Below are positions 1 to 63,338 of a DNA stretch of 64,000 nucleotides, piece after piece. The notes beneath the pieces are model-generated. The model saw nothing but the letters and a program-made list of their open reading frames with translations, searched no databases and had not been told where the DNA came from. The position numbers and the translations under genes are program-made. Every line of letters begins with the position of its first letter. Position 1 is the stretch's first letter. The stretch spans positions 1,364,001 to 1,428,000 of the forward strand of contig NC_047029.1 of the NCBI RefSeq assembly GCF_902652985.1, written 5' to 3'. This stretch comes from Pecten maximus. Its lineage: Eukaryota.

Positions 1-490
1 AATGAACTGTCTTTGTCACACGACTTATTACTCTACAGAGAAAGGATCGTTATTCTGGAGGATGTTCGTGGGGAAACTCTTGAAAGTACCCATGACGGTC
101 ATTTAGGATTAACTAAAACTCACGCGAAAGCCCAATAGGCTTGATGGTGACCATGAATAGCCAGCACAAAATATTTACTTGTAAATTTTGTCAATTGAAC
201 AAGCCGTCACAGCATCGAGAACCGAGGAATATTACACCTTTTCCTCTCCAGCCATTGCAAAAGGTAGCAGTTGACCTGTGTACTTGTGTACATCGTAAGG
301 AACACAGTATATCATCGTTACTGACTACTATTCATGTTTCAATGAACTGTGTTAACTTGAAACGACGACTAGTGCTTTTGTCATCTGAAAACTAAGGAAA
401 TGGTGTCGGACAATGGGACTCGATTTGTGTCCGAGGAGTATTGCAGAAAGATACCAATTCAAGCAAACATTCTCTAGTCCGCATTAGCTG
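1..490 (+). pseudogene. Decayed Ty3/Gypsy LTR-retrotransposon pol fragment (integrase Zn-binding and core)
   Basis: Frame 1 from base 1 reads NELSLSHDLLLYRERIVI...HDGHLGLTKT, then CKFCQ, PLQKVAVDL, VTDYYS and EMVSDNGTRFVSEEY across stops and frameshifts; a typical Gypsy HHCC + rve pattern. Possible PPT/LTR start (AATGGGGAGA|TGTT) at ~1122-1135. Confidence 0.75.
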
Positions 491-1849
491 AAACGAGATT
501 CGGTTATGATCAAAACTGGCAATGACAAAGTCTGATCTGATTCCGAAACTGTTCGTCAATGTAATCTAGAAAATCGGTCTTACGTAGTAGATATACCGAA
601 AGGAAACACTTTCCGATGGAATCGTCGATTTCCATAACGTGTCGACAAAAACTGTTTGGCAATCATGTGGACCAAAGCGTCTGTGCATCAACAAATTCGC
701 CGATGCTATCATCAAAGTCTGTGGAAGTAAAACTGAATAAACCACCGAACAGCCCATTTACTATCAGTGACAATTCCGACAAATCCATGTCGTGACCATC
801 CGAAGTGGTCTTTTTACAAGCCCAGGAGACTTTTTGCTTATGTGACTGTGTAAATGGTTTAATTTTGCGTAAAGTTTGTAATTTTGTGTTTCTATATTGA
901 CAGGAAATACTTAAAGTGTTACAGTTAAAGTTTTTGATGTTCATCATAGGACTTGGGTTTGCTTGCAATGTGGTCAGATTGGATTTAGTTTAAAGTTAAT
1001 GTCTAATCATGATAAATTTAAGCGTTCCTTTTGATTAAATATAATAGTGACATTGAACAGTTAATTAAGTGATACACTTTGGAGTAATTTTAAATTTTGG
1101 GATTTGGTAACTTCTTACCATAATGGGGAGATGTTAAGTTTAACTATAAGGTCAATAGAGTTATTTCCCTTGAATGGTGTGAGTACTTTTAATGTGACGT
1201 CACAAATTTCTGTATAGATAATTCCGTGTAACGTGATCAGAGACTTTCTGATGTTGTATGCCTGAAACAAGGGGTATTGCCGAGTGCAATGGCCGGCACC
1301 ATTATGGCATCAGGGAAACGGATTATTCAGAAAACATGTAAAGATCATAAGTTTTCATACAAAATTAGCTGTTCACTGACGTTAATAGAAGATAAAATGG
1401 TAAGGATATGTGGCAAAAGTGAAATTTGCTGTTTTCATTATTAGTTATCACATACTTTGTCGGTGTCCACGGGGCTGCATTGTTCTCGTTTCATGAAAGA
1501 TAAGTTATTTTCTTACCATCACATGTGTTATCATGTACTTCTTTATAATGTCAACATATCGATAAGGTTTTCCCAAGAGAGAATAGTGCCGGAGATTGTA
1601 AAATTAAATCTATTTTCGGTCAGGGATAATAAATTCCGGATTTCCCCCAATAAAATTGTTAAACCTATCTGGATTATACCTCTATATTCAATATTATTTA
1701 AAATGGTTTAAAACGTACTATAACGTTTTTAATTATTTCTGTTTTATTAAAAATGACGGTTATTTGAAGACAATCTGTTGATTTCAATACAGCAACGTTA
1801 AGGACAAATGAAGTTGGTTTATGGGTTTTGCTGAAGAAGAACTAACCAA

Positions 1850-3158
1850 TAACGTGGAAAGAAAGCTGGAAAAGAGAATTACTGCAAATAAAACTGTCGT
1901 AGAAATCCGTAAGATCGGGGATTGTTTGCTCGTATTCTCATTGCAGCAAGATGCCGACCAAAAGTAATTGCTCAGAGTCATTGCCAAATACAAATTATCT
2001 GTAATTCCCCGGTTTTTTGTTGTTGTTTTCTTTAAATTTTTGTTTGTTTTTTGTTTGTTTTTTGTTTATTTTTTGTTTGTTTTTTTGTTTTGTTTTTGTT
2101 TTTATTATCATTATTTTTATTCCATTGCTTAGTGAAAAATCTGCTTATGAGTGTCCTAGAAATGTTAGCCGCTGATAGCGCGGTTGAAATCACGGACGAA
2201 ACGTGCACATAAGATAATAGATACTACAACCATTGTAGATGGTATGGTGGAAGTACAAGCGATGGGGAAACCGCTCTTGGTAAACGTTTGTAGTGACTTA
2301 GCAGAACACTTCCTACAAGTCAGTTAAAGAAAGTGCCTGTTAAAATACAATGACGTACATCTTACATTTGACAGGTATGATGTTCCAAAATCACTGAAGG
2401 ATGCCAAAAGACAAAGACGACTTGGAAAAAAGGAGGCAACTGCTTACAATATAACAGACCATACCTATCTTACCAATGTATCTCTGGTGAAGTTTCTGAC
2501 GCATTCATCGACGAAGGATGAATTATCAACATACCTCTCAATAAAAGTCCTCGAGTATGCAACTGAAATGAATCTGCACCTGGTCTGTGCATGGAGAGAC
2601 CAAGCAAGGTCAACTTTTTTCGATGCTGGGTACTTGGCCAGTTCACAAGAGGAAGCAGATATAAAACTCGTCCTACATGCTCACCTCAAAGATGCTCATC
2701 AAACTTGTATATCCACTCACTCGATACAGACGTGTTCATTCACTTTTTTAAGACGGTATCCACGACTACCAAATTCTGCACTGGAACAGGGAATAGGCGA
2801 CCTGAAATAGATTTGGGGCATATATATTGTAGTCTGTCGCCTTTAGAAATAGAGGTCCTACCTAGTGTCCACGCGTTTTCAGGAGCAGATACTACTTGAT
2901 CGTTTTCCGGTGAAGGAAATCTGTCATTTTGGAAGGCATTTCGATCTGCAGACGAATCAGTGAAACGCGTTTTCGCAGACCTCGAAAAGAATGAACTCAC
3001 AGAAGAAATGGAAATAATGATCAAACAGTTCACATGTTATCTATATTTTCCGAAAACAACTCTCATGGATATTGGTTTTCTATGCTGGTGGATGCTTAAG
3101 CAAAAGCAAGCTCAAGCTAAAAAAAACTTCCGCTTACTAGGGCAGCACTGGAACAATC
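1850..3158 (+). pseudogene. 5' part of a decayed PIN/FEN1-like nuclease + CXC-domain gene (probably transposon-derived), interrupted by the Polinton-like element
   Basis: Motifs across frameshifts: DRGLFARIL, IVDGMVEVQ, LTFDRYD, QEEADIKLVLHA, HSLDTDVFI, HAFSGADTT, GNLSFWKAF, WWMLKQKQAQ, KLPLTRAALEQ. The acidic motif order resembles FEN1/XPG-type PIN domains. Confidence 0.7.
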
Positions 3159-3294
3159 GAGAGATGTGATGACACTGTGGGGTTTTTTTCTCTCCCAGAA
3201 TGCTTCATTCAAGATGGCTGCCAATGTTGGCAGCCATCTTGAAATGAGGCATTCTGGGAGAGAAAAAAAACCCACAGATGTCATCAATTCTCTC
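3159..3294. repeat. Terminal ~136-bp imperfect palindrome (hairpin), left end
   Basis: Arms GAGAGATGTGATGACACTGTGGGG(T)7CTCTCCCAGAATGCTTCATTCAAGATGGCTGCCAA / TTGGCAGCCATCTTGAAATGAGGCATTCTGGGAGAG(A)8CCCACAGATGTCATCAATTCTCTC around a TG apex at 3225-3226. Confidence 0.93.
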
Positions 3295-3417
3295 CCCTGT
3301 ATCTTGGTTTTCAAATACAGAAGTGACATACCTTTCTTTAGTTGTATTTTCTTGAGATTTTATCTTTTCATGTTCTTTTGGACATCTTCTTCTTTCAATA
3401 TCTGTTGTTGATGATTT

Positions 3418-3789
3418 ATGGCTAGCCGGGTTGGATTTCATGACGTTATTGACTTTCGGCATGCTAGTATAGTATGTAAATGGCTAGTCGGGTTGGTTTT
3501 CACGACGTTATTGACTTTCGGCATGCTAGTATAGTATGTAAATGGCTAGCCGGGTTGGTTTTCACGACGTTATTGACTTTCGGCATGCTAGTATAGTATG
3601 TAAATGGCTAGCCGGGTTGGTTTTCACGGCGTTATTGGCTTTCGGCATGCTAGTATAGTATGTAGATGGCTAGCCGGGTTGGTTTTCATGGCGTTATTGG
3701 CTTTCGGTATGCTAGTATAGTATGTAAATGGCTAGCCGGATTGGTTTTCATGGCGTTATTGGCTTTCGGCATGCTAGTATAGTATGTAA
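3418..3789 (+). repeat. 62-bp tandem repeat, 6 copies (in left TIR)
   Basis: ATGGCTAG recurs at 3418, 3480, 3542, 3604, 3666, 3728. Confidence 0.93.
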
Positions 3790-3790
3790 A

Positions 3791-4641
3791 TGTCATGATG
3801 TTATTTGTCATTATTTGTCATGTTTTGTCATTATTTGTCATGTTTTGTCATTTTTGTCATAATTTTGTCATTTTTGTCATGTTTTTGTAATGATTTTGTC
3901 ATTTTTTGTCATGTTTTGTCATGATTTTGTCACGATTTTGTCATTATTTGTCATGATTTTGTCATGTTTTGTCATGATTTTGTCATGTTTTGTGATGATT
4001 TTGTCATTTTTGTCATGTTTTTGTCATGATTTGTCATGATTTTGTCATTTTTGTCATTTTTGTCATGATTTGTCATGATTTTGTCATGTTTTTGTCATGA
4101 TTTTGTCATTTTTGTCATGATTTGTCATGATTTATCATGATTTTGTCATGATTTTGTCATGTTTTGTCATTTTTGTCATGATTTTGTCATGTTTTGTCAT
4201 GATTTTGTCATTTTTGTCATGTTTTTGTCATGATTTGTCATGATTTTGTCATTTTTGTCATGTTTTTGTCATGATTTGTCATGATTTTGTCATTTTTGTC
4301 ATTTTTGTCATTATTTGTCATGATTTTGTCATGTTTTTGTCATGATTTTGTCATTTTTGTCATGATTTGTCATGATTTTGTCATATTTTGTCATGATTTT
4401 ATCATGTTTTGTCATTTTGTCATGATTTTGTCATGATTTTGTCATTATTTTGTCATTTGGGATTTTGTCATTATTTTGTCATTTTTTTGTCATTATTTGT
4501 CATGTTTGGTCATTACTTGTCATGTTTTGTCATTATTTGTCATTGTTTTGTCATGATTTTGTCATGATTTTGTCATGATTTTGTCATGTTTTGTCATGAT
4601 TTTGTCATGTTTTTGTCATGATTTTGTCATGTTTTGTCATT
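3791..4641 (+). repeat. Irregular 9-12 bp TTTTGTCATGA-type array (in left TIR)
   Basis: Continuous tgtcatgatttt/tgtcatttt variants; mirrored as ATGACAAAA at ~11423-11920. Confidence 0.93.
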
Positions 4642-4871
4642 ATCCTTCTGAGAGGCCTGGCATTCTTCAATTACAGTTGTCTTGGAAATTCTATGATCTA
4701 TACCAAAAAACATGGTAGTCATTACAATAGAATTCTGATTGAAATACAAGAATTCACATGACCCTGATGTTTTGAAAGGTGAAGTGAAGTCAAATCTATT
4801 TTTGGAATAAAGGAAAAGTTGCCAACAAGTTTATAAAGGGAATCATCTTACGGGAAATATGTATCATTTCT

Positions 4872-5150
4872 ATGATGTTGTCAAATTCAGCATACACCAT
4901 GTTAAAAATCATTCGGTCTCCAATCAAATTTTACCTGAGGTGGAAACTGAGAAAAAGCAAAAGCTGGATATCATTGATAATGTGCATCAAAACAAAAAAT
5001 GATTATTGGGAAGTGATAAATGATGTAGACCGTACATGTTTACGTGGAAAATTAGTTTGTGAAATATTTACCAAAGATTTATGTGAAGTGCAAAGAACCG
5101 ATTCATTTCTTAAACAATTTGAACTGTTAACAGCACATGAAAAGGTATAA
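4872..5150 (+). CDS. Orphan 92-aa ORF, first gene of the element cassette
   Basis: ATG start, same strand as all element genes, TATAAA 40 nt upstream as for other element genes; no recognisable motif. Confidence 0.4.
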   Translation: MMLSNSAYTMLKIIRSPIKFYLRWKLRKSKSWISLIMCIKTKNDYWEVINDVDRTCLRGKLVCEIFTKDLCEVQRTDSFLKQFELLTAHEKV

Positions 5151-5183
5151 AAGGAGTTGCAATGAATATGTGAATAAGGAAAA

Positions 5184-6311
5184 ATGTTGTCAAAAAAGCA
5201 GAAAGATTTTCTGAAGAAGATATGGTATGATCCAAAACATGTGTTGGGATTCACTGGCCCCAAGAGGTTGCATGAGGGTATAAAAAAGAAAGGCAAATTG
5301 AAGATAAGTCTATCACAGGTCACTGCTTGGTTGCAGAATCAAGATCTTTATAGTGTAAGAAGACAAGTTAGACACAAAACACCAAAAGTCAAAACTCCTT
5401 TGGTGAGTGTGGATTACATGTGAGATGCTGATTTAGCAGATGTCTCCAATATCAAAGACTATAATGAAGGCATCACTTTCTTACTAGTTATTGTGGATCA
5501 TTTTTCACGTTATGCTTGGGTACTCCCCCTTAAAAACAAGAAGGATACCACAGTGTTGGAGGCTTTCAAAAAGATATTTGCAGAACGTCAGCCCGTCATC
5601 ATCAGATCAGATCATGGAAAAGAGTTCTTAAACAATGCATTTCAAAAGCATTGCAAAGCCATTGGGGTCACCCACATTGCAAGTCACAGTGCTCATAAAG
5701 CTGCATTTGCTGAATCATTTATAGGGAAGTTGAAAAATATTTTGTATAGATACTTGCATTCCAATCAAACGTTTACCTTTATCGATGTGTTACCTGACAT
5801 CATTAGAAGTTACAACAGTAGAACACACTCTGGTCTGTATGGATTTGCACACAAGGATGTAGACAATGACACACAAAACATCATCTTTTCGAAAAGAGAC
5901 CATGAACCTCCCAAGAAAAAGATGCCACACAAATTCAAAAAAGGAGATCAAGTGAGGCTGAGTTACAAAGTCCGTGAATTCCGTCGGGGGTGGCATCAGA
6001 AATGGACAGATGAACTATTCATAGTCTCTCACAGATATTACAGAGGAAGTGTTCCGGTTTATAAAGTCAAAGATATGATGGGTGAACAGATAGAGGGGGT
6101 TTTCTACGCTCAAGAATTACAAAAGGTCTACAAATCAAAAGAAACGAAGTGGAAAATAGAAGAAGTCTTAAAAGTTAAGAGAGTTAAAGGAAAGAAATTA
6201 GCGTTGATTAGATGGTTAGGATGGCCAAAAAAATTTGATTCCTGGATAGATTATGATGACATTGAAGTGCCCATAAAAACTATAAATAAGCTGAAAAAAA
6301 CACCAAAATAA
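5184..6311 (+). pseudogene. Polinton rve (DDE) integrase with C-terminal chromodomain; nonsense codon at 5421-5423
   Basis: VDYM*DADLAD...LLVIVDHFSRYAW, RSDHGKEF, AFAES, YNSRTHS, FKKGDQVR, WTDELF, FYAQELQKV; chromodomain WKIEEVLK...LIRWLGWPKKFDSWI. ORFs 5184-5423 and 5493-6311 are in the same frame (likely TGG>TGA). Confidence 0.92.
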
Positions 6312-6319
6312 AGAAAACC

Positions 6320-7117
6320 ATGGCTTACGTGTGTCAATTTTGTTCTAAAATGTACACGTTGAAAAACTCTCTGGATCAACATATCAGAAGAAAACATTTC
6401 AAAGATCTACGTGAAATACCGTGTTCATCATCTGGCAAAATTACCTCTCAGGAGGAATTTGATATAGTTAATGTACCGGTAAGCACGTTACCCCCAGTAC
6501 CTAGAGGACATTTCTTGCCCTGGAAACATCCCTTTACCTGTATGATAGCAGGTCCTACAGGAAGTGGAAAAACAACGTTTGTGAAGCGGTTTATAGACAA
6601 CATTCAACAGATGATGACTCCCATACCGGATAAAATCCTGTGGTGTTATGGAGAATATCAAACAATCTATGGTTTCATTGACAAAGTAGAGTTTCATGAA
6701 GGTTTACCTGATCTAATGGAACTAGACACGTCTGTGAATAATTTGATAGTGATAGATGATTTGATGTCTGAAGTTAACTCTGACGTAACGTCATTATTCA
6801 CCAAGAAGAGTCATCATTGCAACATCAGCGTCATGTATATAGTTCAGAATGTATTTTGTCAGAGTAAAAAACATAGAGACATCAGTTTGAATACTCATTA
6901 CATTGTTTTGATGAAAAATCCTAGAGATTCGTCACAGGTCAGGTGTTTGTCTCAGCAGATGTTTCCAGGTAAAACTTTACTGATGGAAGCCTAAAAGGAT
7001 GCTACTCTTCATCCTCATGGATATCTGTTAGTAGATTTGAAACAAAACACTCCTTCAGATCTCAGATTACGTACATGTATATTTCCTGGAGAGTATCAGT
7101 TTGTGTATGGCACCTAA
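6320..7117 (+). pseudogene. FtsK/HerA (A32-like) genome-packaging ATPase with N-terminal C2H2 zinc finger; premature stop at 6992-6994
   Basis: Walker A GPTGSGKT, Walker B LIVIDD, SHHCNISVMYIVQN, RDISLNTHYIVLMKNPRD; the frame continues past TAA as KDATLHPHGYLLVDLKQNTPSDLRLRTCIFPGE to TAA at 7115-7117. Confidence 0.92.
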
Positions 7118-7167
7118 AAACTTATATATATATATGCTTCATGGAAGGTAGATGTTGTTTGACGAAG

Positions 7168-7464
7168 ATGTCTTCATATCTGGAGAAACATTGTAAAGAC
7201 TTGGAGTATTTTTGCCAAGCCGAACCTTCTGTACGCAAAGTCATCCTAGAAAAGGCCAGTAAAAGTTTCATATACTGTTTATGTGAGTGCATACAAAACA
7301 TTCTACAGGGTCGTTTGCCTTTGACACCAAAGCAAAAGAAACGGTTGTCCCGTCACAAACAAAAGTGTAGACAATTATTGAAAACTAAAAAACGTATCAT
7401 TCAACAAGGAGGATTTTTACCTGCCATCACATCCATCTTACTACCCGGTCTATTTAAAAGATGA
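7168..7464 (+). CDS. Small basic Polinton core protein with adenovirus pX-like GGFLPA C-terminus
   Basis: CLCECIQNILQGRLPLTPKQKKRL...IIQQGGFLPAITSILL; resembles the conserved small Polinton/adintovirus ORF; ATG 7168 lies 45 nt after a TATA box. Confidence 0.75.
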   Translation: MSSYLEKHCKDLEYFCQAEPSVRKVILEKASKSFIYCLCECIQNILQGRLPLTPKQKKRLSRHKQKCRQLLKTKKRIIQQGGFLPAITSILLPGLFKR

Positions 7465-8393
7465 AAAAAAAGATACTGGACGTGCAAGGTCCCATCACCA
7501 ACTTCAGACCTAAGCCTCCTGTAGACTCTTTCGTGAAATCCCTTCACCACATTGAGGGGGAAATGGCAAGTACTTTGCAACGTGAAGATCTTCCACTTGA
7601 CGAAAAAATGACTTTGTATGATCAGGATTTAAGAAAATACCTTTCTAGACATCAACAATACAAACAGGATGGTTTAACACCCAAGGTAGTCACTACCATC
7701 GAAAACTTTCCCAAAGAGGACCTCACACGTAAACTTGTTTTGCAGAGTGTACCAAAAACTGCTCAATCTAAGACAGAAATGTTGATGGATAGATTAAAAC
7801 AGGTAGTCCAGTGGAACGACAAAGGAGAATTTGGATATAAAGGTGCCCCGGTGATTTCAGGTTCTAATCTAGTGCATTTAGTGGGCAACGCTACACGTCA
7901 AAGGTCTCTGAAACACGTCAACCCTCAGGGGATGAATACCTTTCTAACAGCTTTAAGGGATCTGAATGTCCCTCCGAGCTGGATAAGTAATAAAGAATAT
8001 TTGGATAAAATGCAAACTGTTGCCTCTACTCCTTTACCAACGATAAGAGAGAATATACCATCTGAAATGTCTTTGGCTAGACCTCCAGCTACTCTTACAT
8101 CTATGATGCCATCTCCAGTCACCCCATTGGCTACATCTCAATCAACTCATACACCATATCATGTTACCCCTTTGGCTACATATCAAGATTTTCATACACC
8201 GATACCATCTGGAGCTACCCCTTTGACCACATCTGAGAACACCCTCCTATCTCCAACACAAATGGATTGGAAGGAATGCAGTGATGAGAGTGGCTACAAC
8301 ACTTTTTCTACACCCACTTCACGATCAACGTTACCTAGAAAACCGGTTTCAGACATGCTAAAGAAATGGAAAAAATTTAAGCCTACAGATTAG
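7461..8393 (+). CDS. Conserved Polinton-associated protein of unknown function with Ser/Thr/Pro-rich tail
   Basis: 310-aa ORF; EMASTLQREDLPLDEKMTLYDQDLRKY, WNDKGE...ISGSNLVHLV, NVPPSWISN resemble an ORF recurrent in animal Polintons. Confidence 0.7.
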   Translation: MKKKILDVQGPITNFRPKPPVDSFVKSLHHIEGEMASTLQREDLPLDEKMTLYDQDLRKYLSRHQQYKQDGLTPKVVTTIENFPKEDLTRKLVLQSVPKTAQSKTEMLMDRLKQVVQWNDKGEFGYKGAPVISGSNLVHLVGNATRQRSLKHVNPQGMNTFLTALRDLNVPPSWISNKEYLDKMQTVASTPLPTIRENIPSEMSLARPPATLTSMMPSPVTPLATSQSTHTPYHVTPLATYQDFHTPIPSGATPLTTSENTLLSPTQMDWKECSDESGYNTFSTPTSRSTLPRKPVSDMLKKWKKFKPTD

Positions 8394-8446
8394 AGCCCGG
8401 AAAAAGTATAAAAGTCATCGAAACACTCCAGTCAAATCATAATAAA

Positions 8447-8698
8447 ATGACTGACAATACCAGTGTAACCTCTAATTGGTTGTTGTTTGGTACCAAACTG
8501 CCAAGAGAAGAAATTGTTTTCTTTTGTCAAGTGTGCATCATCTATATCATCATCTGCTGTAGCATCTATCATCTGAGCATAGGTCATCCACTAGAGTCTC
8601 TGTGGGTTTCTTTGTTGAGCAGTGGTATTGGCTATCTAATACCTAGTCCTACTCTGAAAAAGAAAGATGTTTTACATTTACATAACCCTTCCCAGTAA
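8447..8698 (+). CDS. Small two-TM hydrophobic protein
   Basis: EIVFFCQVCIIYIIICCSIYHL and LWVSLLSSGIGYLIPSP hydrophobic segments; TATAAAA 40 nt upstream. Confidence 0.65.
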   Translation: MTDNTSVTSNWLLFGTKLPREEIVFFCQVCIIYIIICCSIYHLSIGHPLESLWVSLLSSGIGYLIPSPTLKKKDVLHLHNPSQ

Positions 8699-9455
8699 TA
8701 ATTCAATGGAGTACTTTCAAGACAATACATTAACAATTTACAAGACACGTTTGCCTCAACCTCTAGACCCCAAAGGTTCTTGGGAGATGGGTCTAGCTGA
8801 AATTCAATATCCTCACTCTTGGTTCAACGTACGTGAAGGTGAATTGTGGTTGGAGATGATCGTTGGTGGCAGTGACAATGTTGCTAATGTTGAATTTGAT
8901 CCCGGAGCTGCATTAAAACTTTACGTTAAACCAGGTTATTATCCCAATGTGCTCAATATTTTAGAATACATATGGGGGGCCAAAAAAATGGTATCGCATG
9001 GAGATATGTTCAAGATTTCTACCGATAAAATTGATCAGAGGGTAACTTTGACTATATCTACTGGCTTACGTTTAAATCTCAGTCCTATGCTGACAAAATT
9101 GTTAGGATTTAAGTATTCACGGTTTTCTGAAGGAAAACACACTGGCAGGAACATGGCTGACGTTCGTCAAGGTTTCTATTCCATTTATGTCTACTGTCCT
9201 TTGGTTGAACCACAGATGGTGGGTGATTCCAGGGTTCCACTTGTCAGAATAGTTCCAATTGAGGATATGCCAGGACATGTCATCAGTAAAGAATTCCAAC
9301 CAATTCATTATGTACCATTACAACAACGTCAATTTCAAGAAATAGAAATAATGTTGAGAGACGATACAGGCAAACCCATTCCATTTGAGAGAGGAAAAGT
9401 TGTCGTCACCTTACATTTTAAGAGGCATTCTTTAGGTTCAATTTATCAGAACTAA
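8667..9455 (+). CDS. Minor capsid protein (penton-like single jelly-roll, Polinton PX)
   Basis: YITLPSNNSMEYFQDNT, WEMGLAEIQYP, IYVYCPLVEPQMVGDSRVPLVRIV, HYVPL, IEIMLRDDTGKPIPFERGKVVVTLHF. Confidence 0.88.
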   Translation: MFYIYITLPSNNSMEYFQDNTLTIYKTRLPQPLDPKGSWEMGLAEIQYPHSWFNVREGELWLEMIVGGSDNVANVEFDPGAALKLYVKPGYYPNVLNILEYIWGAKKMVSHGDMFKISTDKIDQRVTLTISTGLRLNLSPMLTKLLGFKYSRFSEGKHTGRNMADVRQGFYSIYVYCPLVEPQMVGDSRVPLVRIVPIEDMPGHVISKEFQPIHYVPLQQRQFQEIEIMLRDDTGKPIPFERGKVVVTLHFKRHSLGSIYQN

Positions 9456-9508
9456 AAGGTCTATATAAGAAATTATTATTAGGCTCAAACTGAAGAAAAG
9501 CAATCGAT

Positions 9509-10690
9509 ATGAAAGCTGCTCACCAATGTAATAGAAACCTATTTGATAGGTATTACTTGAATCAAGCTGGGGGAGGTGGTAGTGGAAATGTCTTCAGAGG
9601 AACGAGAATGCAGAGAGGTCATGATATAGGAGGTCTGTTTAGAGGTTTATTCAAAACCATTAAGCCTTTACTTCATTCTGGAATGAAGAGCATCACTCCA
9701 ATTGTGAAGAAAGGAGTGAGACTTGTAGGAAAACAAGCAATTGATTCTGGCATGAAATTGACTAGTGATTTGCTAAAGGGGGAAAACATCAAAGCCAAAG
9801 AATCTCAGTTGACCAGTGGAATGTGGTATAAGGATACAGCTGCGCAAATGGACACGGCTGGAAACGATAATCATGGCTACATCAAGAGGAAATTGTCAAC
9901 AGCAACCAGTAGATCTGTGGAAATGATGGGAAGACTCCATTCTGACCTATTTGCCCAGGAAAGATATCTTGTCAATAATGTGAACATGAAAATAACGTTA
10001 ACCAGAAGTAAAGATGTTTTCTGTTTGATGGGAGAAGACAAAGAATTCAAAGTTGTCATCAAGGACATCTATCTAAACGTGAGAAAAGTTAGACTGAGTC
10101 CATCGGTGAGACTGGCCCATGCAAAAGCCCTGGAAATATCACCTGCCAAATACCCAATCAGAAGAATTGCAATGAAAGTATTTTCTGTTCCAAGAGGAAA
10201 TCACAATTTTGTAAAGGATAATCTTTTTCTAGGACAAATGCCTAAGAGATTGGTCATCGGATGTGTGGACAGTGATGCCTATAGTGGACTCATCACCAAG
10301 AATCCTTTTCATTTTAAAGATTTTGATATTAATTTTGTTGTCCTGAACGTGGATGGCAAACAAGTCCCCACCAAGCCTTTGCAGCCAAATTTCACCCAGA
10401 AACATTACGTAAGAAGCTACATGGGCCTGTTTAACACTACCGGCAAAACGTTTCGTGACGAGGGAAATAACATCTCAAAGGATGAATATGGCACTGGTTT
10501 TACCCTCTTTGGATTTGATCTGACACCCGACCTTTCAGAAGTGGGCACATTTCATCTTATAAAAAAGGGAAACTTGTCTTTGGAAGTGCATTTCGGAACA
10601 GCCCTACCCAATACCATCAACTTTGTGGTGTATGCTGAATTTGACAATATCATAGAAATAGATCGTAACAGGCAAATTCTTTTTGATTAA
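9509..10690 (+). CDS. Chimeric ORF: amphipathic (cupiennin-like) virion protein fused in frame to an N-terminally truncated double jelly-roll major capsid protein (PY/hexon-like)
   Basis: aa 1-~95: YYLNQAGG...QRGHDIGGLFRGLFK...VGKQAIDSG...GENIK. From ~9794: AKESQLTSGMWYKDTA, GRLHSDLFAQERYL, AKYPIRR, GQMPKRLVIG, NPFHF, GFTLFGFDLTPD, VVYAEFDNIIEIDRNR (MCP motifs). Confidence 0.85.
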   Translation: MKAAHQCNRNLFDRYYLNQAGGGGSGNVFRGTRMQRGHDIGGLFRGLFKTIKPLLHSGMKSITPIVKKGVRLVGKQAIDSGMKLTSDLLKGENIKAKESQLTSGMWYKDTAAQMDTAGNDNHGYIKRKLSTATSRSVEMMGRLHSDLFAQERYLVNNVNMKITLTRSKDVFCLMGEDKEFKVVIKDIYLNVRKVRLSPSVRLAHAKALEISPAKYPIRRIAMKVFSVPRGNHNFVKDNLFLGQMPKRLVIGCVDSDAYSGLITKNPFHFKDFDINFVVLNVDGKQVPTKPLQPNFTQKHYVRSYMGLFNTTGKTFRDEGNNISKDEYGTGFTLFGFDLTPDLSEVGTFHLIKKGNLSLEVHFGTALPNTINFVVYAEFDNIIEIDRNRQILFD

Positions 10691-10695
10691 AGTGC

Positions 10696-11150
10696 ATGAT
10701 GAATACTTTAGAAATAGACCTGATCCTACAAGCCGTTTCTCCTCATTTTGCAGGGGTGTATGCTAGAAATACATTACCTACATGTCCTTTAAGTGTTCCT
10801 TGTCTCATGTTTTGTAATACTGACCCAGATAATAAACAAGGACAACATTGGATTGCTATGTATATAGATGAAGAAAGACGTGGAGAAATTATGGTCCTCA
10901 TGGATTGTCTCCCTTTCATTTAGATTTTATCAATTTCTTAAACCGGCAATGTAAAACATGGATTTATAATCCCGTTGCAGTACAGCATTTGAACTATCTA
11001 GTGTGTGGTCAACATTGTATCTATTACTTGGTTCACCGAGAGATGGGAATGACCATGAATGACATCACCGAATATCTTCAATCAGAATGGCATGCCAATA
11101 CTTACATTGTAGATGATTTCGTTCATCATCTTGAACGTAACTTGTTATAA
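10696..11150 (+). pseudogene. Adenain-like (C5) cysteine maturation protease, frameshifted near 10887
   Basis: FAGVYA, CNTDPDNKQGQHWIAMYI in ORF 10696-10923; VQHLNYLVCGQHCIYYL in ORF 10905-11150; the expected catalytic Asp position reads YGPHG. Confidence 0.88.
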
Positions 11151-11279
11151 TAGTAATGAGTATACATTGTTATTAATTGCAGGTTTTGTGTAGTGACTGT
11201 ATGTATTGCAATACATAACTTATAAAAATATTGATTGTTTAATTAAGAAATCATTGTTTGTATATACGTTTGTGAATAT

Positions 11280-11285
11280 AATAAA
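11280..11285 (+). terminator. Putative polyadenylation signal at the end of the element cassette
   Basis: AATAAA 130 nt after the protease stop, just before the right TIR. Confidence 0.4.
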
Positions 11286-11319
11286 AGAAAAAAAAACTAA
11301 GTATGAATTATGTTATTTT

Positions 11320-12417
11320 TTTCAATCAGAATTCTATTGTAATGACTTCCATGTTTTTTGGTATACATCATAGAATTTCCAAGACAACTGTAATTGAAGA
11401 ATGTCAGGCCTCTCAGAAGGATAATGACAAAAATGACAAAAATGACAAAAAATGACAAATAATGACAAAACATGACAAAATCATGACAAAAATGACAAAA
11501 CATGACAAATAATGACAAAACCATGACAAAAATGACAAAATCAGGACAAAACATGACAAAACATGACAAAATCATGACAAAACATGACAAAATCATGACA
11601 AAACAATGACAAATAATGACAAATAATGACAAAATCATGACAAAAATGACAAAATAATGACAAAATCATGACAAATCATGACAAAAATGACAAAATAATG
11701 ACAAAATCATGACAAATCATGACAAAAATGACAAAAATGACAAAATCATGACAAAACATGACAAAATCATGACAAAAACATGACAAAATATGACAAAATC
11801 GTGACAAAATCATGACAAATCATGACAAAACATGACAAAATTGACAAAATTATGACAAAATGACAAAACATGACAAATAATGACAAAACATGACAAATAA
11901 TGACAAATAACGTCATGACATTTACATACTATACTAGCATGCCGAAAGCCAATAACGCCATGAAAACCAATCCGGCTAGCCATTTACATACTATACTAGC
12001 ATACCGAAAGCCAATAACGTCGTGAAAACCAACCCGGCTAGCCATCTACATACTATACTAGCATGCCGAAAACCAATAACGTCGTGAAAACCAACCCGGC
12101 TAGCCATTTACATACTATACTAGCATGCCGAAAGCCAATAACGTCATGAATTCCAACCCGGCTAGCCATAAATCATCAACAACAGATATTGAAAGAAGAA
12201 GATGTCCAAAAGAACATGAAAAGATAAAATCTCAAGAAAATACAACTAAAGAAAGGTATGTCACTTCTGTATTTGAAAACCAAGATACAGGGGAGAGAAT
12301 TGATGACATCTGTGGGTTTTTTTCTCTCCCAGAATGCCTCATTTCAAGATGGCTGCCAACATCTTGAATGAGGCATTCTGGGAGAGAAAAAAAAAACACA
12401 GTGTCATCACATCTCTC
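11320..12417 (-). repeat. Right terminal inverted repeat (shorter microsatellite, 4x62-bp repeat, terminal hairpin 12293-12417)
   Basis: Reverse complement of the left TIR; four 62-bp units at ~11922-12169; hairpin apex has a 10-bp deletion. Confidence 0.93.
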
Positions 12418-12423
12418 ACAATC

Positions 12424-12700
12424 AATCTTGCGAACTGAGCTTCAGGCTATAATTTGGTTCAATGATGACGTCGCATGCCCTATGCTTCCATCTCCTACTG
12501 TTTGGATGGAGAGGGTAAAATGATAGTTATGACCTCCCTTCATCCTGCACCAACTGCAATGTTTGAATTTATTTCATGCAAGTGCAAAACAACTCGATGC
12601 TCATCAAATAAGTGTAAGTGCAAATCGAACAACTTGTTTTGTACATAACTTGACGAGTGTGTAGCAGATAATGACACATGCGAAAACACACCATTAGGCC
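12424..12700 (+). pseudogene. 3' part of the interrupted PIN-like/CXC gene
   Basis: Continues ILRTELQAIIWFNDDVACPMLPSP, then PAPTAMFEFISCKCKTTRCSSNKCKCKSNNLFCT*LDEC...CEN (tesmin/CXC-like Cys cluster). Confidence 0.8.
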
Positions 12701-15089: not shown

Positions 15090-18000
15090 ACACTGCCATC
15101 TCCTTTATACCGCCATTCCCTTGACCGACACTGCCATCCCCTTGACCGACACTGCCATCTCCTTGACCGACACTGCCATCTCCTTGACAGACACAGCCAT
15201 CCCCTTGACAGACACTGCCATCCCATTGACAGACACTCCCATCTCCTTGACCGACACTATCATCCCCTTGACAGACACTGTCATCCCCTTGACAGACACT
15301 GTCATTCCCTTGACAGACACCGCCATCTCCTTGACAGTCACTGCCATCCCCTTGACAGACACTGCCATCCCATTGACACTCCCATCTCCTTGACAGACAC
15401 CGCCATCCCCTTGACCGACACTGTCATCCCCTTGACAGACACTGCCATTTCCTTGACAGATACTGTCATCCCCTTGACAGACACCGCCATCCCCTTGACA
15501 GACACTACCATCACCTTGACACACACTCCCATCTCCTTGACCGACACTGTCATCCCCTTGACAGACACTGCCATCCCCTTGACAGACACTGCCATCCCCT
15601 TGACAGACACTGCCATCTCCTTGACAGACACTGCCATCTCCTTGACAGACACCGCCATCCCCTTGACAGACACTGCCATCCCCTTGACAGACACTGCCAT
15701 CTCCTTGACAGATACTGTCATCCACTTGACAGACACCGCCATACCCTTGACAGACACTGCCATCACCTTGACACACACTCCCATCTCCTTGACCGACACT
15801 ATCATCCCCTTGACAGACACTGTCATCCCCTTGACAGACACTGCCATCCCCTTGACAGACACTGCCATCTCCTTGACAGACACTGCCATCTCCTTGACAG
15901 ACACTGTCATCCCCTTGACAGACACTGCAATCTCCTTGACAGACACTCCCATCCCCTTGACAGACACTGCCATCTCCTTGACCGACACTGTCATCCCCTT
16001 GACAGACACCGCCATACCCTTGACAGACACTGCCATCACCTTGACACACACTCCCATCTCCTTGACCGACACTGTCATCCCCTTGACAGACACTGCCATT
16101 CCCTTGACCGACACTGTCATCTCCTTGACAGACACTGTCATCCCCTTGACAGACACTGCCATATCCTTGACAGACACTTCCATCCCCTTGACAGACACTG
16201 CCATCTCCTTGACCGACACTGCCATCTCCTTGACAGTCACTGCCATCCCCTTGACAGACACTCCCATCTCCTTGACAGACACTTCCATCCCCTTCACAGA
16301 CACTGCCATCTCCTTGACAGACACTGCCATCTCCTTGACAGACACTGCCATCTCCTTGACAGACACCGCCATCCCCTTGACAGACACTGTCATCCCCTTG
16401 ACAGACACTGCCATCCCCTTGACAGACACTGCCATCCCCTTGACAGACACTGCCATCTCCTTGACAGACACTGCCATCTCCTTGACAGACACTGTCATCC
16501 CCTTGACAGACACTGCAATCTCCTTGACAGACACTCCCATCCCCTTGACAGACACTGCCATCTCCTTGACCGACACTGTCATCCCCTTGACAGACACTGC
16601 CATCTCCTTGACAGATACTGTCATCACCTTGACAGACACCGCCATACCCTTGACAGACACTGCCATCACCTTGACACACTCCCATCTCCTTGACCGACAC
16701 TGTCATCCCCTTGACAGACACTGCCATTCCCTTGACCGACACTGTCATCTCCTTGACAGACACTGTCATCCTCTTGACAGACACTGTCATCTCCTTGACA
16801 GACACTGCCATCTCCTTGACAGACACTCCCATCTCCTTGACAGACACTGCCATCCCCTTGACAGACACTGCCATCCCCTTGACAGACACTGCCATCACCT
16901 TGACACTGCCATCCCCTTGACAGACACTGCCATCCCCTTGACAGACACTGCCATCTCCTTGACAGACACTGTCATCCCCTTGACAGACACTGCCATCCCC
17001 TTGACAGACACTATCATAACCTTGACACTGACATCCCCTTGACAGACACTGCCATCCCCTTGACAGACACTGCCATCTCCTTGACAGACACTGGTATCTC
17101 CCTGACAGACACTGCCATCCCCTTGACAGATACTCCCATCCCCTTGACAGACACTGTCATCTCCTTGACAGACACTGCCATCTCCTTGACAGACACTGCC
17201 ATCTCCTTGACAGACACTGTCATCCTCTTGACAGACACTGTCATCCCCTTGACCGACACTGCCATCCCCTTGACAGACACTGTCATCTCTTTGACAGACA
17301 CTGTCATCTCCTTGACAGACACTGTCATCCCCTTGACAGACACTGCCATCTCCTTGACAGACACTGTCATCCTCTTGACAGACACTGCCATCTCCTTGAC
17401 AGACACTGTCATCCCCTTGACAGACACTGTCATCCCCTTGACAGACACTGCCATCTCCTTGACAGACACTGCCATCCCCTTGACAGACACTATCATCTCT
17501 TTGACAGACACTGCCATCTCCTTGACAGACACTGCCATCCCCTTGACAGACACTGCCATCCCCTTGACAGACACTCCCATCCCCTTGACAGACACTGCCA
17601 TCTCCTTGACAGACACTGCCATCCCTTTGACAGACACTCCCATCCCCTTGACAGACACTGCCATCTCCTTGACAGACACTGTCATCACCTTGACAGACAC
17701 TGTCATCACCTTGACAGACACCGCCATCTCCTTGACAGACACTGCCATCTCCTTGACAGGCACTGCCATCTCCTTGACCGACACTGTCATCCTCTTGACA
17801 GACACTGTCATCCCCTTGACCGACACTGCCATCCCCTTGACAGACAATGCCATCTCTTTGACAGACACTGTCATCTCCTTGACAGACACTGTCATCCCCT
17901 TGACAGACACTGCCATCTCCTTGACAGACACTGTCATCCTCTTGACAGACACTTCCATCTCCTTGACAGACACTGTCATCCCCTTGACAGACAGTGCCAT

Positions 18001-20135
18001 CCCCTTGACAGACACTGCCATCTCTTTGACAGACACTGCCATCCCCTTGACAGATACTGTCATCCCCTTGACCGACACTGTCATCCCCTCGACAGACACT
18101 GCCATCTCCTTGACAGACACTCCCATCTCCTTGACAGACACTGCCATCTCCTTGACAGACACTGCCATCCTCTTGACAGACACTGCCATCCCCTTGACAG
18201 AAACTGTCATCCTCTTGACAGACACTACCATCTCTTTGACAGACACTGCCATCTCCTTGACAGAAACTGTCATCTCCTTGACAGATACTGTCATCTCCTT
18301 GACAGACACTGCCATCTCTTTGACAGACACTGCCATCTCCTTGACAGACACTGTCATCTCCTTGACAGATACTGTCATCTCCTTGACAGACACTGCCATC
18401 TCTTTGACAGACACTGCCATCTCCTTGACAAACACTGCCATCTCCTTGACAGATACTGTCATCTCCTTGACAGACACTGCCATCTCTTTGACAGACACTG
18501 CCATCTCCTTGACCGACACTGTCATCTCCTTGACAGACACTGTCATCCCCTTGACAGACACTGCCATCTCCTTGACAAACACTGCCATCCCCTTGACAGA
18601 TACTGTCATCTCCTTGACAGACACTGTCATCTCCTTGACAGACACTGTCATCCCCTTGACAGACACTGCCATCTCCTTGACAAACACTGCCATCTCCTTG
18701 ACAGATACTGTCATCTCCTTGACAGACACTGCCATCTCTTTGACAGACACTGCCATCTCCTTGACAGACACTGCCATCTCCTTGACAAACACTGCCATCT
18801 CCTTGACAGACACTGCCATCCCCTTGACAGACACTATCATCTCCTTGACAGACACTGCCATCCCCTTGACAGACACTACCATCTCCTTGACAAACACTGC
18901 CATCTCCTTGACCGACACTGTCATCTCCTTGACAGACACTGTCATCCCCTTGACAGACACTGCCATCTCCTTGACAAACACTGCCATCTCCTTGACAGAC
19001 ACTATCATCTCCTTGACAGACACTGCCATCTCTTTGACAGACACTGTCATCCCCTTGACAGACACTGCCATCCCCTTGACAGACACTGCCATCCCCTTGA
19101 CAGACACTCCCATCTCCTTGACAGACACTCCCATCTCCTTGACAAACACTGCCATCTCCTTGACCGACACTGTCATCTCCTTGACAGACACTACCATCTC
19201 CTTGACAGACACTACCATCTCCTTGACAGATACTGTCATCTCCTTGACACTGACATCCCCTTGACAGACACTGCCATCCCCTTGACACTGACATCTCCTT
19301 GACAGACACTGCCATCCCCTTGACACTGACATCCCCTTGACAGACACTGCCATCCCCTTGACAGACACTGCCATCTCCTTGACAGACACTGTCATCCCCT
19401 TGACAGACACTGCCATCTCCTTGACAAACACTGCCATCTCCTTGACAGATACTGTCATCTCCTTGACAGACACTGCCATCCTCTTGACAGACACTGCCAT
19501 CCCCTTGACAGACACTGTCATCTCCTTGACAGACACTGTCATCCTCTTGACAAACACTGCCATCTCCTTGACAGATACTGTCATCTCCTTGACAGACACT
19601 GCCATCCTCTTGACAGACACTGCCATCTCCTTGACAGACACTGTCATCCCCTTGACAGACACTGCCATCTCCTTGACAAACACTGCCATCCCCTTGACAG
19701 ACACTCCCATCCCCTTGACAGACACTGCCATCCCCTCGACAGACACTGTCATCCCCTTGACCGACACTGTCATCTCCTTGACAGACACTGTCATCCCCTT
19801 GACAGACACTGCCATCTCCTTGACAGACACTGCCATCTCCTTGACAAACACTGCCATCCCCTTGACAGACACTCCCATCCCCTTGACAGACACTGCCATC
19901 CCCTCGACAGACACTGTCATCCCCTTGACCGACACTGTCATCTCCTTGACAGACACTGTCATCCCCTTGACAGACACTGTCATCTCCTTGACAGACACTG
20001 TCATCCCCTTGACCGACACTACCATCTCCTTGACAGACACTGCCATCTCCTTGACAGACACTGCCATCCCCTTGACAGACACTGCCAACTCCTTGACACT
20101 GTCATGCCCTCGACAGACACTGCCATCTCCTTGAC
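15090..20135. repeat. 21-bp minisatellite (CCTTGACAGACACTG[C/T]CATC[C/T])n, ~240 copies
   Basis: Direct reading; source of the TDTAISL / QGDGSVC / MAVSVKE pseudo-ORFs. Confidence 0.97.
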
Positions 20136-23100
20136 ACCAGAACAGGGTCTCCGAGTATTATATCGGTACTAAAAACGAAAGTGAAACCGACTTCACAAAA
20201 TATAACAATATTGACTGAAAACTCGTTCTTGTTATTTGTTATTCCCCAACAGTAAAATATAAACCATTGAACATATTTGTTGCTTCCTCTTGTTGATTTG
20301 ACCTTTTCTACCAAATAAAGTTTTCTGGAAAAATCAGGTGCATCAAAGTTTCTGGTTTTCGATATTGCATATCAGTTTTTTATACACTCGGTACTCGGCA
20401 TATCAAAAAACCCTTCGAATTATTATAGTTTATGAGGGATGTCTCTTGTCTAACAATACCAGCTAAAACATAATGAGAATTTAGCCATCTGATAATGAAC
20501 ACACCAAAGAGAGACAATCCCCTTCGTAACAAACGAATAATGAATATTTTAGACTTGTTCAAATGGTAATTATCGCAATCTCTTGTTTGGGGTTGGTTAA
20601 AATTACTGTTTCAGATAAAACAATATTATATGTTTGTATTTCCCCTATCATTGTAGTAAGCCAGATTGTATCACTCAGTTATCTACATTACATAGTTTAC
20701 TGTACTGTCCCCATTATCATGTGATATTGCACATGCGCAAACAGTTGGGTCCAGATGAAATACGGGAATCCCAGATTAAACGCGACTTCCACTTTTGATC
20801 TAGACGCAGTTATCAATTGATTTCCTTTAACAAACACATTTTAAAAACAAGTGATTTGGATTTTAAAGAAAGCAGACGTCAACTAAGGTGTGGTAAGTGT
20901 ATATATATATATATATATAGATTTCCTCTGTGAAACATACAGGTGTATAACACATGTACCTGAATGATTAGTACGTGATATTAACAGAAAGATACCATCC
21001 AGCAGCTCAGTTCAAGATACAGTTTAATGGTATATGTATATATATATATATAAATGTGTGTGTACAAAACCAGTTCTTGGTATCAGACAATTAATAATCC
21101 AACAGAATTCATAGAGCCCTCCTTGAAGTTATCCCTCGTCTTCGGGACACTCAGTTAGTAAGGATACCTATTAAAGACGAAAGGAGAGGAAATGAAAGAA
21201 TCAGGATCAGAGTAGAAAAGACAAGAAAGTGAAAAAGAGAAAAAAAAGTACATTCAAATGAGGTCTCAGTGTCAAAATGTTCCAATTCGAATACAGGTCT
21301 TGACAAACATTGCAATTTCCTTGATGCCATCTCCTTGACATACATTGCCAACTCCTTGACACTGCTATCCCCTTGGTAGACACTGCCAATTCCTTGACAC
21401 TGTCATCTCAATGACAGACACTGTCATCTCCTTAACACCAGAACAGGGTCTCCGAGTATTATACCGGCACTAAAAACGAAAGTGAAACCGACATCACAAA
21501 ATGTAGCAATTATGACTGATAACACGTTCTTGTTATTTATTCCCCAACAGTAAAATATTAACCATAAAAACCAATGTATTGTGTCCTCCTGCTGATTGAC
21601 CTTTTCTGAAAAATCAAGTTTTCTAGATAAATCAGGTGCATCATAGTTTCTGGTCTTCGATATTGCATATCAGTTGTTTTTTTTATACACTCGGTACTCG
21701 GCATATCAAAAAGCCCTTCGAATTATTATAGTTTATGAGGGATGTCTCTTGTCTAACAATACCAGCTAAAACATAATGAGAATTTAGCCATCTGATAATG
21801 AACACACCAAAGAGAGACAATCCCCTTCGTAACAAATGAATAATGAATATTTTAGACTTGTTCAAATGGTAATTATCGCAATCTCTTGTTTGGGGTTGGT
21901 TAAAATTACTGTTTCAGATAAAACAATATTATATGTTTGTATTTCCCCTATCATTGCAGTAAGCCAGATTGTATCACTCAGTTAGTTACATTACATAGTT
22001 TACTGTACTGTCCCCATTATCATGTGATATTGCACATGCGCAAACAGTTGGGTCCAGGTGAAATACGGGAATCCCAGATTAAACGCGACTTCCACTTTTG
22101 ATCTAGACGCAGTTATCAATTGATTTCCTTTAACAAACACATTTTAAAAACAAGTCATTTGGATTTTAAAGAAAGCAGACGTCAACTAAGGTGTGGTAAG
22201 TGTATATATATATATATAGATTTCCTCTGTGAAACATACAGGTGTATAACACATGTACCTGAATGATTAGTACGTGATATTAACAGAAAGATACCATCCA
22301 GCAGCTCAGTTCAAGATACAGTTTAATGGTATATGTATATATATATATATAAATGTGTGTGTACAAAACCAGTTCTTGGTATCAGACAATTAATAATCCA
22401 ACAGAATTCATAGAGCCCTCCTTGAAGTTATCCCTCGTCTTCGGGACACTCAGTTAGTAAGGATACCTATTAAAGACGAAAGGAGAGGAAATGAAAGAAT
22501 CAGGATCAGAGTAGAAAAGACAAGAAAGTGAAAAAGAGAAAAAAAAGTACATTCAAATGAGGTCTCAGGGTCAAAATGTTCCAATTCGAATACAGGTCTT
22601 GACAAACATTGCAATTTCCTTGATGCCATCTCCTTGACATACATTGCCAACTCCTTGACACTGCTATCCCCTTGGTAGACACTGCCAATTCCTTGACACT
22701 GTCATCTCAATGACAGACACTGTCATCTCCTTAACACCAGAACAGGGTCTCCGAGTATTATACCGGCACTAAAAACGAAAGTGAAACCGACATCACAAAA
22801 TGTAGCAATTATGACTGATAACACGTTCTTGTTATTTATTCCCCAACAGTAAAATATTAACCATAAAAACCAATGTATTGTGTCCTCCTGCTGATTGACC
22901 TTTTCTGAAAAATCAAGTTTTCTAGATAAATCAGGTGCATCATAGTTTCTGGTCTTCGATATTGCATATCAGTTGTTTTTTTTATACACTCGGTACTCGG
23001 CATATCAAAAAGCCCTTCGAATTATTATAGTTTATGAGGGATGTCTCTTGTCTAACAATACCAGCTAAAACATAATGAGAATTTAGCCATCTGATAATGA

Positions 23101-39900: not shown

Positions 39901-40804
39901 TCGAGCCGAAAGTGAAAAGATGACAGTACATAGCTTAGGTACATCCCTATCTACGTCATGTAGACGCTTGACAGCTGGTGCGCATGGGATACATTTATGA
40001 TATATTATACCATTACAAATGTACATGTATGTGTTATTACGGTGTTAAGAGTACCTTGTTACTGAGTATAAATGAACAAAATAAATGACAACTGTATCAA
40101 GTAATTATGAATTATACGAACGTTTCGAAATCAAAAGTATATGACGTTACTCAAGCTGTTCCAATTGAAATCATGCATTGGTTCCTATTTTCTTAAGTTT
40201 TTTTTTTTAGTTTTTTTTTCTGTTATCATGGCGGAGAAGGATTGTGACATTGATACTAGCATGTGGACGGTTACCATGGAGAGTTGTAAATACTTCAACT
40301 GATTTCAGATAACGTTCTGTCGACAGTTTCCGTCACTTTACGGAAATAAACGAGTTAACAAGAAATGAGGATCTATTATAGCAAGCTTTATCGGCGCATG
40401 TCTTTCGATAGACAGGTTTTAATTGTCCGTGTGGTTCGTACAGGTATAATAAATCAGGTAATGTATGGGGTGGGCGGTAGGAAACATTTCAATTAGAGAC
40501 TTTATATATGGTATTGTGACCATAAATTCCGTTCCTATTACACTCTCCTACAGATATAGAGGCCTGAGTAAATATACCTGGTTCTATTAGCATGTGTCAT
40601 ACCCTGGAGTTTTAAAATGTGCATAGGAAACAGTCTTTGGTATGTACAGGTAATGTCATACCCAGACACCACTCTATTAGTGTGATATTTATTTAGGTTT
40701 GATTGGTTAGTAAATCTTATTTGTCAAAGATAATTATGGACCATTAGTCTTGCATTTGTTTGTTTTTTTCGACGACAAAGGCATTTTTTTATCTAGTTGT
40801 GTTT

Positions 40805-62670: not shown

Positions 62671-63338
62671 CATATCCATATATATTCGCCATATTATTGT
62701 TCATTTTATCTGCAACGTATGCTTATCTGTATGTTCTATTTCATTTGGAAAATCCTTAAAACTCAAATTCTATCATACTTTATGCACTTATGGAGTTATG
62801 ACCAGTAATCAGAATCCACACACACAACATCCACACATGGAGTATATATACCAATAATCAGAATCCACACACGGAGTATATGTACCAATAGTCAGTATTA
62901 TTCTGCTGGTTCGTCCTTTCAGTTCTTAAACAGCAATATGTATTAACCAGATGAGGGGAAAATAGAGCAGGAATCGTGTTCCTCACCTCTACATTCGCTG
63001 ACATGTGGCAGATCGGACTGACCATTTGTCACGTGAGGGTCATCTTCACGCGGTCGTTTATTACAGAAACACCCTAAAAATACCTTCCGGTTACAAAAAT
63101 ACTCATCTGTCAGCCACAAAGTCCCTAGGAATAACAAAACATAAAAATACAGTACATGTACATGCGTGTATATGACAGCTGTTTTTAGCAGGTATGACCC
63201 CAAATCGTAACTTGTATTTGCTTTGTTTTTGTTTTGTTTTGTTTGTATGTTGGTAATTTTAATTATTTATCAATATTTTTTAATTGTTTGCCAGGTCGCG
63301 GCCACCATTTATTTTTTATTTCATATTGTCTGTTTCAG

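Follow-up and report, generated by a model that had tools for sequence, protein, structure and literature searches.

The element at positions 3159-12417 of the window, i.e. the whole stretch of 64,000 nucleotides of Pecten maximus DNA that was analysed, is one member of a Polinton-like family that encodes capsid proteins and an integrase and lacks a polymerase (segment S). Elements with the same termini that carry a protein-primed PolB (pPolB) are found elsewhere in the assembly (segment R). S and R have complementary, non-overlapping gene sets located on separate elements, and no element carrying both sets in cis was present among the listed loci of the single assembly on which this comparison rests. 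We estimate at roughly 55% the probability that these elements represent a bipartite Polinton, whose capsid-plus-integrase segment S and polymerase segment R would complement each other in trans.

The window element begins with GAGAGAT and finishes with ATCTCTC, and direct reading of the + strand places the target-site duplication (TSD) ACAATC at both 3153-3158 and 12418-12423. The left terminal inverted repeat (TIR, 3159-4744) is composed of a terminal hairpin of type A, common to the pPolB-only elements (3159-3294), about 120 bp of unique sequence, six copies of a 62-bp repeat (3418-3792), a TGTCA microsatellite (3804-4640) and an inner portion of 113 bp. The right TIR (11320-12417) contains the microsatellite, four 62-bp repeats and a terminal hairpin with a shortened loop (12293-12417). 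When the microsatellite is excluded, the TIR arms are 93-97% complementary; their terminal palindromes of about 135 nt have computed DNA folding energies of -67.5 and -51.5 kcal/mol in the two TIRs, and the distance between the TIRs is 6575 nt. The first-pass annotation, which had described intact ends with a 6-bp TSD, hairpins and about 6.6 kb between the TIRs, is borne out by these data. A Polinton-type set of ends is present, namely TIRs, a 6-bp TSD and a short-repeat end motif, the latter being (GA)3, one base off the (AG)3 reported for Polintons. Perfect 6-bp TSDs flank 13 of the 16 distinct two-ended elements (8/10 for S, 2/2 for R and 3/4 for the satellites described below).

Nine Polinton genes, all on the + strand, are located between the TIRs. 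They are preceded by a 426-bp spacer (4745-5177, + strand), which separates the left TIR from the integrase and contains a weakly constrained frame of 92 aa (4872-5150, + strand; dN/dS 0.6) and, in inverted orientation, a repeat of 34 bp from the 3' end of the capsid gene (4866-4899). The gene of the rve integrase with a chromodomain (5184-6311; PF00665, E 1.5e-12) is followed by that of the packaging ATPase (6320-7117), with a Walker A motif GPTGSGKT, an N-terminal zinc finger and weak P-loop ATPase matches to Pox_A32/IVa2 (Pox_A32 E 4e-5, just over the cut-off). Next come a PM-like gene (7141-7464), a PZ-like gene (7461-8393), a gene for a small hydrophobic, likely membrane protein with same-position homologues in metagenome contigs (8447-8698), a likely minor capsid gene, assigned by position and size (8667-9455), a PW-like gene (9509-9793), the major capsid gene (9794-10699) and an adenain-type protease gene (10696-11150; Peptidase_C5, E 7e-5). 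An AT-rich spacer of 169 bp, conserved in sister copies, connects the protease to the right TIR (11151-11319). The names PM, PZ, PW and minor capsid follow from gene order, as laid out in the portion of PMC8097293 used, and not from sequence matches. The putative minor capsid protein has no Pfam match and is 29-36% identical to the proteins in the same slot of contigs with pPolB in cis. Homologues of the ATPase and protease of the family are also present in pPolB-bearing metagenome contigs; a PDB sequence search with the protease retrieved only ASFV S273R (E 0.72). The capsid frame of a sister copy is predicted to fold as a double jelly roll (model pLDDT 81), and the top Foldseek matches of this model are the major capsid proteins of Sputnik (E 1.7e-16), iridovirus and mavirus, with that of PBCV-1 also among the matches. 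A search of IMG/VR with the capsid gave nine pattern matches and no relative.

The window copy is decayed, five of its nine genes being broken. The lesions are an in-frame stop in the integrase, a premature stop in the ATPase, a copy-specific deletion that fuses the first 95 of the 142 PW codons to capsid residues 132-432, a stop near the capsid end and a frameshift in the protease. The capsid and integrase gene set described in the first-pass annotation was confirmed. The suggestion that PolB could have been lost at position 9793 is not upheld either: the deletion at 9793/9794 took about 600 bp of PW and the capsid N-terminus, and sister copies have nothing but PW and capsid sequence at this place.

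Absence of a polymerase is a property of the whole family. Fifteen queries covering both PolB classes were compared with 44 family stretches; no PolB remnant was detected on 37 of them and the remaining 7 gave only short chance matches (best E 0.003). The window element likewise has no PolB, in line with the initial observation. Pfam scans of the window frames found neither helicase nor primase, and the non-gene gaps measure 426 and 169 bp. Protein-primed PolB, the Polinton criterion, is absent from the element and is present only when S and R are taken together as a single genome. When the assembly was searched with the protease-to-TIR junction (best 40 of 110 candidates scored), 26 of 35 mapped copies with the protease-spacer-TIR arrangement on the right also kept the left junction of TIR, 426 bp and integrase; the other nine have an internal deletion or lie on a stretch that ends first. 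Since the junction query itself selects for the right junction, the census was repeated with integrase DNA (best 40 of 52 candidates) and capsid protein (best 97 of 208). Among the matches listed, the S family amounts to about 45 integrated copies in the assembly. No listed pPolB lies within 15 kb of any of the 45 S capsid loci, the nearest being at 295 kb, whereas 7 of the 34 capsid loci from other families have one (50 listed pPolB loci; best 91 of 109 pPolB candidates scored). As a control, other Polintons of this assembly carry pPolB in cis with the capsid genes.

The genes of S bear marks of purifying selection. All nine frames are open in 2 of 37 stretches examined for this, and comparison with 16 copies, pooled over pairs, gives dN/dS of 0.21 for the capsid, 0.34 for the integrase and 0.38-0.64 for the other genes. 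A copy diverged at pS 0.3-0.5 has the same gene order, no PolB in 19 kb, and dN/dS of 0.18 for the capsid and 0.33 for the integrase. Homologues are found in other scallops, at 76% in Argopecten and 70% in Mizuhopecten, and NCBI labels as Pecten maximus a protein identical to the sister-copy capsid. Collectively, the 26/35 copies keeping both junctions and the 0/45 capsid loci near a pPolB argue for a family without replication genes, as had been proposed, and not for a single deleted copy. S likely depends on a helper, a dependence also raised in the first-pass annotation. Copies with the same TIRs and a pPolB, which had been named as the sign of a simple deletion derivative, do exist, but they lack integrase and capsid; this points to a split genome and not to such a derivative.

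The R elements were reached through a search with type-A ends, in which the best 40 of 215 candidates were scored. This led to two complete elements, of 8161 bp (G000:C8:37979196-37987356) and 7903 bp (C3:13850963-13858865, G000), with type-A hairpins and perfect TSDs. Besides a PF03175 pPolB, each has one or two small frames, and neither encodes an integrase, ATPase or capsid protein. Since R lacks an integrase, its TSDs need an integrase in trans. The family was then defined by a pair of searches at the DNA level, in which all 24 candidates of one and all 9 of the other were scored. None of the 13 R stretches of at least 10 kb carries S genes; 10 of them contain the type-A end sequence and the other 3 have no end. 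Copies diverged up to pS 0.18 retain the R layout, and dN/dS of the R pPolB is 0.32-0.71. No R copy of the assembly has a full-length open pPolB, all being broken; compared with the youngest S copies, R is less numerous and has diverged further (pS 0.07-0.18). R-like DNA spans the pPolB gene in a separate DNA sample from the host and is present in a second organism at about 86-93% identity; pieces from organism B, which are at depth below 5, were left out. Among the data sets listed for R none is RNA, and a run that may be RNA covers all 30 bins, which speaks neither for nor against expression. For the small right frame of R, an Atlas search gave an uninformative top score of 0.89.

The ends of S and R are as similar to each other as those of S are among themselves, with a median identity over the terminal ~180 nt of 90% for both S-R (90 pairs) and S-S (104 pairs). 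In a tree of 29 ends, R ends are scattered over three or more positions between S ends, which requires 4 changes, and they form one group in 0% of 200 bootstraps (180 columns, the bootstrap being not settled); clustering of the labels compared with shuffles is not significant either way. Ends belonging to one element resemble each other (median 96%, 7 elements) more than they do those of other elements, as copying of a displaced strand via a TIR panhandle would predict. A panhandle/slide-back model of Polinton copying was reportedly proposed by Kapitonov and Jurka in 2006. Four gene-poor elements with type-A ends, here called satellites, are 61-84% self-palindromic and join S-type TIR interiors to pieces of the left arm of R; one of them carries a type-B interior at 92%. 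As controls, five canonical Polinton copies with long frames have neither a type-A nor a type-B end within 20 kb, and AGTAGT without a hairpin forms the ends of the only canonical-type pPolB element for which these were read.

The S cassette occurs with two hairpin types, type A, as in the window, and type B, which shares with type A only the first dozen or so bases. Type B marks the youngest S copies, with 99.6-100% identical capsid DNA in 9 of 10. No R partner with type-B ends was found among 25/25 candidates, three short contigs apart. The hairpin arms co-vary at 9 pairs; both sides changed in 36 cells, compared with 14.7 after shuffling, and none of 500 shuffles was as high (22 ends, with relatedness inflating the signal). 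This co-variation indicates that fold-back or arm-to-arm copying occurs. The 3' terminal bases are able to pair with the inner arm, and one R end has a fold-back junction at the hairpin. The asymmetry between outer and inner arms is swapped in none of 30 ends, an off-centre extra A being in the inner arm in 16 ends and in the outer arm in 0, which rules out a flip/flop of the whole hairpin; the loop alone inverts in a few ends. One seemingly flipped type-B end was dropped, the flanks of this copy being an inverted duplication. Pfam scans detected no HUH nickase/Rep among the frames of the element. As the arms never swap, AAV-like hairpin transfer is unlikely, and the hairpin self-priming of this type that had been invoked earlier finds no support.

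The two halves differ in their affinities. By the definitions given in the consulted part of PMC8502044, R is of the Alpha class and the virion module of S appears to be of Beta type. A metagenome scan gave 79 loci, and the 30 of at least 5 kb were annotated; pPolB is in cis in 11 of these 30, the rest being mostly too short to judge. The closest capsids are 48-54% identical to that of S and belong to contigs with the order pPolB-ATPase-PM-integrase-minor-PW-capsid-protease; in S the integrase stands first, where these relatives carry pPolB. The pPolB of the contigs with the closest capsids has almost no match to that of R, whereas the R pPolB is 37-49% identical to those of elements with capsids that resemble the S capsid at only 31-34%. 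The nearest relatives of the S capsid module are in-cis elements whose PolB is of the other class, so that S and R cannot be regarded simply as the halves of the nearest known ancestor. Hybrids of Alpha PolB and Beta virion genes are known in cis (PMC8502044, in the part available), so S and R either split from such a hybrid or came together through the acquisition of shared ends. One of the metagenome contigs (L247) has, between short inverted repeats, a cassette of about 7 kb with neither PolB nor TSD, which is no more than a lead.

Gene sets never seen in cis, shared and intermixed ends, TSDs, purifying selection and chimeric satellites together lead us to the bipartite reading. The protein-primed polymerase of R would copy both S and R from their common GAGAGA ends, by strand displacement through a TIR panhandle, while the integrase and virion proteins of S would insert and package both segments; complementation in trans, this mode of copying and the formation of virions are inferred. 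Against it count the broken R copies, the lack of an R partner for the youngest S copies, of type B, the affinity of the S capsid module to the other PolB class, and the reliance on a single assembly. A bolder form, to which we give slightly less than even odds, is a naturally bipartite, integrating double jelly-roll dsDNA virus of animals in which an Alpha pPolB segment and a Beta capsid-integrase segment, of distinct Polinton lineages united by hairpin ends, spawn palindromic satellites; it may be widespread but overlooked, since Polinton searches ask for polymerase and integrase next to each other.

The broken polymerases are also accommodated if a full-length Polinton outside the assembly, in other individuals or as an exogenous virus, supplies everything in trans, S and R being its non-autonomous deletion families. 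Shared ends would follow naturally from such a parent, amplified PolB-less polintons coexist with full-length relatives in Pieris (10.1101/2025.02.07.637071, in its available part), and the Alpha/Beta hybrids mentioned above exist in cis. We nevertheless consider this origin unlikely, since the 45 S and 13 R loci include no in-cis copy or junction remnant, both layouts have been kept over deep divergence, and a capsid dN/dS of ~0.2 reflects a constraint dispensable for a fully helped passenger. S could also do without any viral polymerase, moving by integrase cut-and-paste or being copied by a host polymerase from its folded-back 3' end, with R as a passenger. The pairing of the 3' bases with the inner arm, the co-varying arms, the fold-back junction of one R end, the excess of S over R and the partnerless type-B S copies are in agreement with this. 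However, the flip/flop predicted by hairpin transfer is missing from all 30 ends, the extra A keeps to the inner arm (16 against 0) and S encodes no nickase; purifying selection on the R pPolB and the S/R chimeras would moreover be left unexplained, which makes this scenario quite improbable. Finally, S might be served by the polymerase that canonical Polintons of this genome carry in cis; these have open PolB frames of 1095-1318 aa, and their PolB class goes with the S capsid module in metagenome contigs. This we regard as very improbable: canonical elements do not show the hairpin ends, the one end read being AGTAGT, and both pPolB and integrase would be expected to be specific to cognate ends (10.64898/2026.10.13.758929, as far as its available text goes).

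Compared with animal Polintons/Mavericks (adintoviruses) of Beta type, as presented in the parts of PMC8097293 and PMC8502044 consulted, the window element shares 7 of 8 core genes by homology or position and misses pPolB. Genes could be matched for int, atp, pm, pz, minor capsid, pw, major capsid and protease, and the small membrane gene comes in addition to this core. The TIRs, 6-bp TSD, dinucleotide-repeat ends and capsid under purifying selection are also as in the Polintons of these accounts; unlike in Polintons, pPolB is on separate elements with the same ends, and (GA)3 lies within a 135-nt hairpin. Polintons without PolB have already been reported, in one 2026 preprint. Those of Pieris mannii are likewise flanked by TIRs, bear capsid genes and were amplified after the loss of polB, but there the loss accompanies cargo of LINE or LTR type, and full-length relatives are known; the available text of this account describes no polymerase-only partner (10.1101/2025.02.07.637071). 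In C. elegans, pPolB with a TIR and without integrase is noted at 10 loci in the portion of PMC11414722 seen. Tlr1, PLVs and transpovirons are Polinton relatives without canonical pPolB or without the structural module, and according to the excerpted PMC11161782 they bear other replication genes or an integrase of their own, whereas S has no replication gene and R no integrase.

A further comparison is offered by segmented viruses with a related polymerase, the bidnaviruses and the Drosophila Vesanto virus. These are not known to have an rve integrase or a double jelly-roll capsid. As described in the parts of PMC8502044 and PMC8363768 consulted, they encode a Polinton-related pPolB and their segments have matching termini; unlike S and R, they are ssDNA viruses and are not integrated with TSDs. 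The literature searched, which left most subscription journals, supplements and Repbase entries outside its scope, yielded no description of a split Polinton, and the division into capsid-only and polymerase-only elements is likely a new form of Polinton organisation. Since Polintons are defined, and detected in genomes, through polymerase and integrase within one element, e.g. within 20 kb (PMC11414722, in its available part), standard surveys would overlook a split form.

If true, the bipartite reading would introduce a segmented genome among the double jelly-roll dsDNA viruses. According to a model outlined in the accessible portion of PMC10159356, multipartite viruses arise from complementary defective genomes, and S, R, the satellites and the two end types would provide a dated fossil series for it. 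Polymerase swaps between Polinton groups have been reported (10.1101/2023.08.22.554363, as far as its available text shows), and a free polymerase segment could be a possible route for such swaps. The S/R split would also form a parallel to the origin of the bipartite bidnaviruses.

The PolB-less Polinton-like element at window 3159-12417 splits a decayed transposon-like gene, the flanks of which lie at window 2328-3158 and 12424-12700. The left flank translates in frame as LPLTRAALEQ and the right one as ILRTELQAIIW, followed by a Cys-rich, CXC-like stretch. The likeness to transposon and CXC families is a putative one, and a Pfam scan of the window frames gave no match for the interrupted gene. 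Large host tandem arrays occupy window 15090-20136 (21-bp unit), 27131-33353 and 40804-45271 (both with a 25-bp unit), 51200-52605 (12-bp unit) and 61301-62674 (43-bp unit).

Within the left spacer of the element, the 3' end of the capsid gene (10626-10659) recurs inverted as a 34-bp copy at window 4866-4899. This copy is also found in most sister copies and is possibly a template-switch scar. Four satellites elsewhere in the host assembly G000 (C14:2971388-2987260, C9:14607676-14616681, C16:7681986-7694009 and C10:13552497-13559807) have type-A hairpin ends like those of the element, are gene-poor, palindromic over most of their sequence, and mix parts of the capsid-integrase family with those of the pPolB-only elements. 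At one end of a pPolB-only element (L199:1027-1285; G000:C6:13.116 Mb), two terminal segments are joined head to head at the hairpin, an arrangement that resembles a fold-back junction.

Several capsid homologues are carried on ENA/Logan contigs of 7.1-7.7 kb, approximately the size of the capsid-integrase cassette between its TIRs. A metagenome of another host contains an ATPase-integrase-capsid-protease cassette of ~7 kb (L247, Ga0209339_1001889, ~124-7136), flanked by short inverted repeats, with no PolB match within it and no TSD around it. In the scallop genome itself, a 7.6-kb element (L210:1241-8842; G000:C11:35.18 Mb), bounded by AGTAGT ends, 177-bp TIRs and the TSD ACCCAA, encodes pPolB and ATPase; no integrase or capsid match was detected in this interval. 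It is a second capsid-less type in the host genome.
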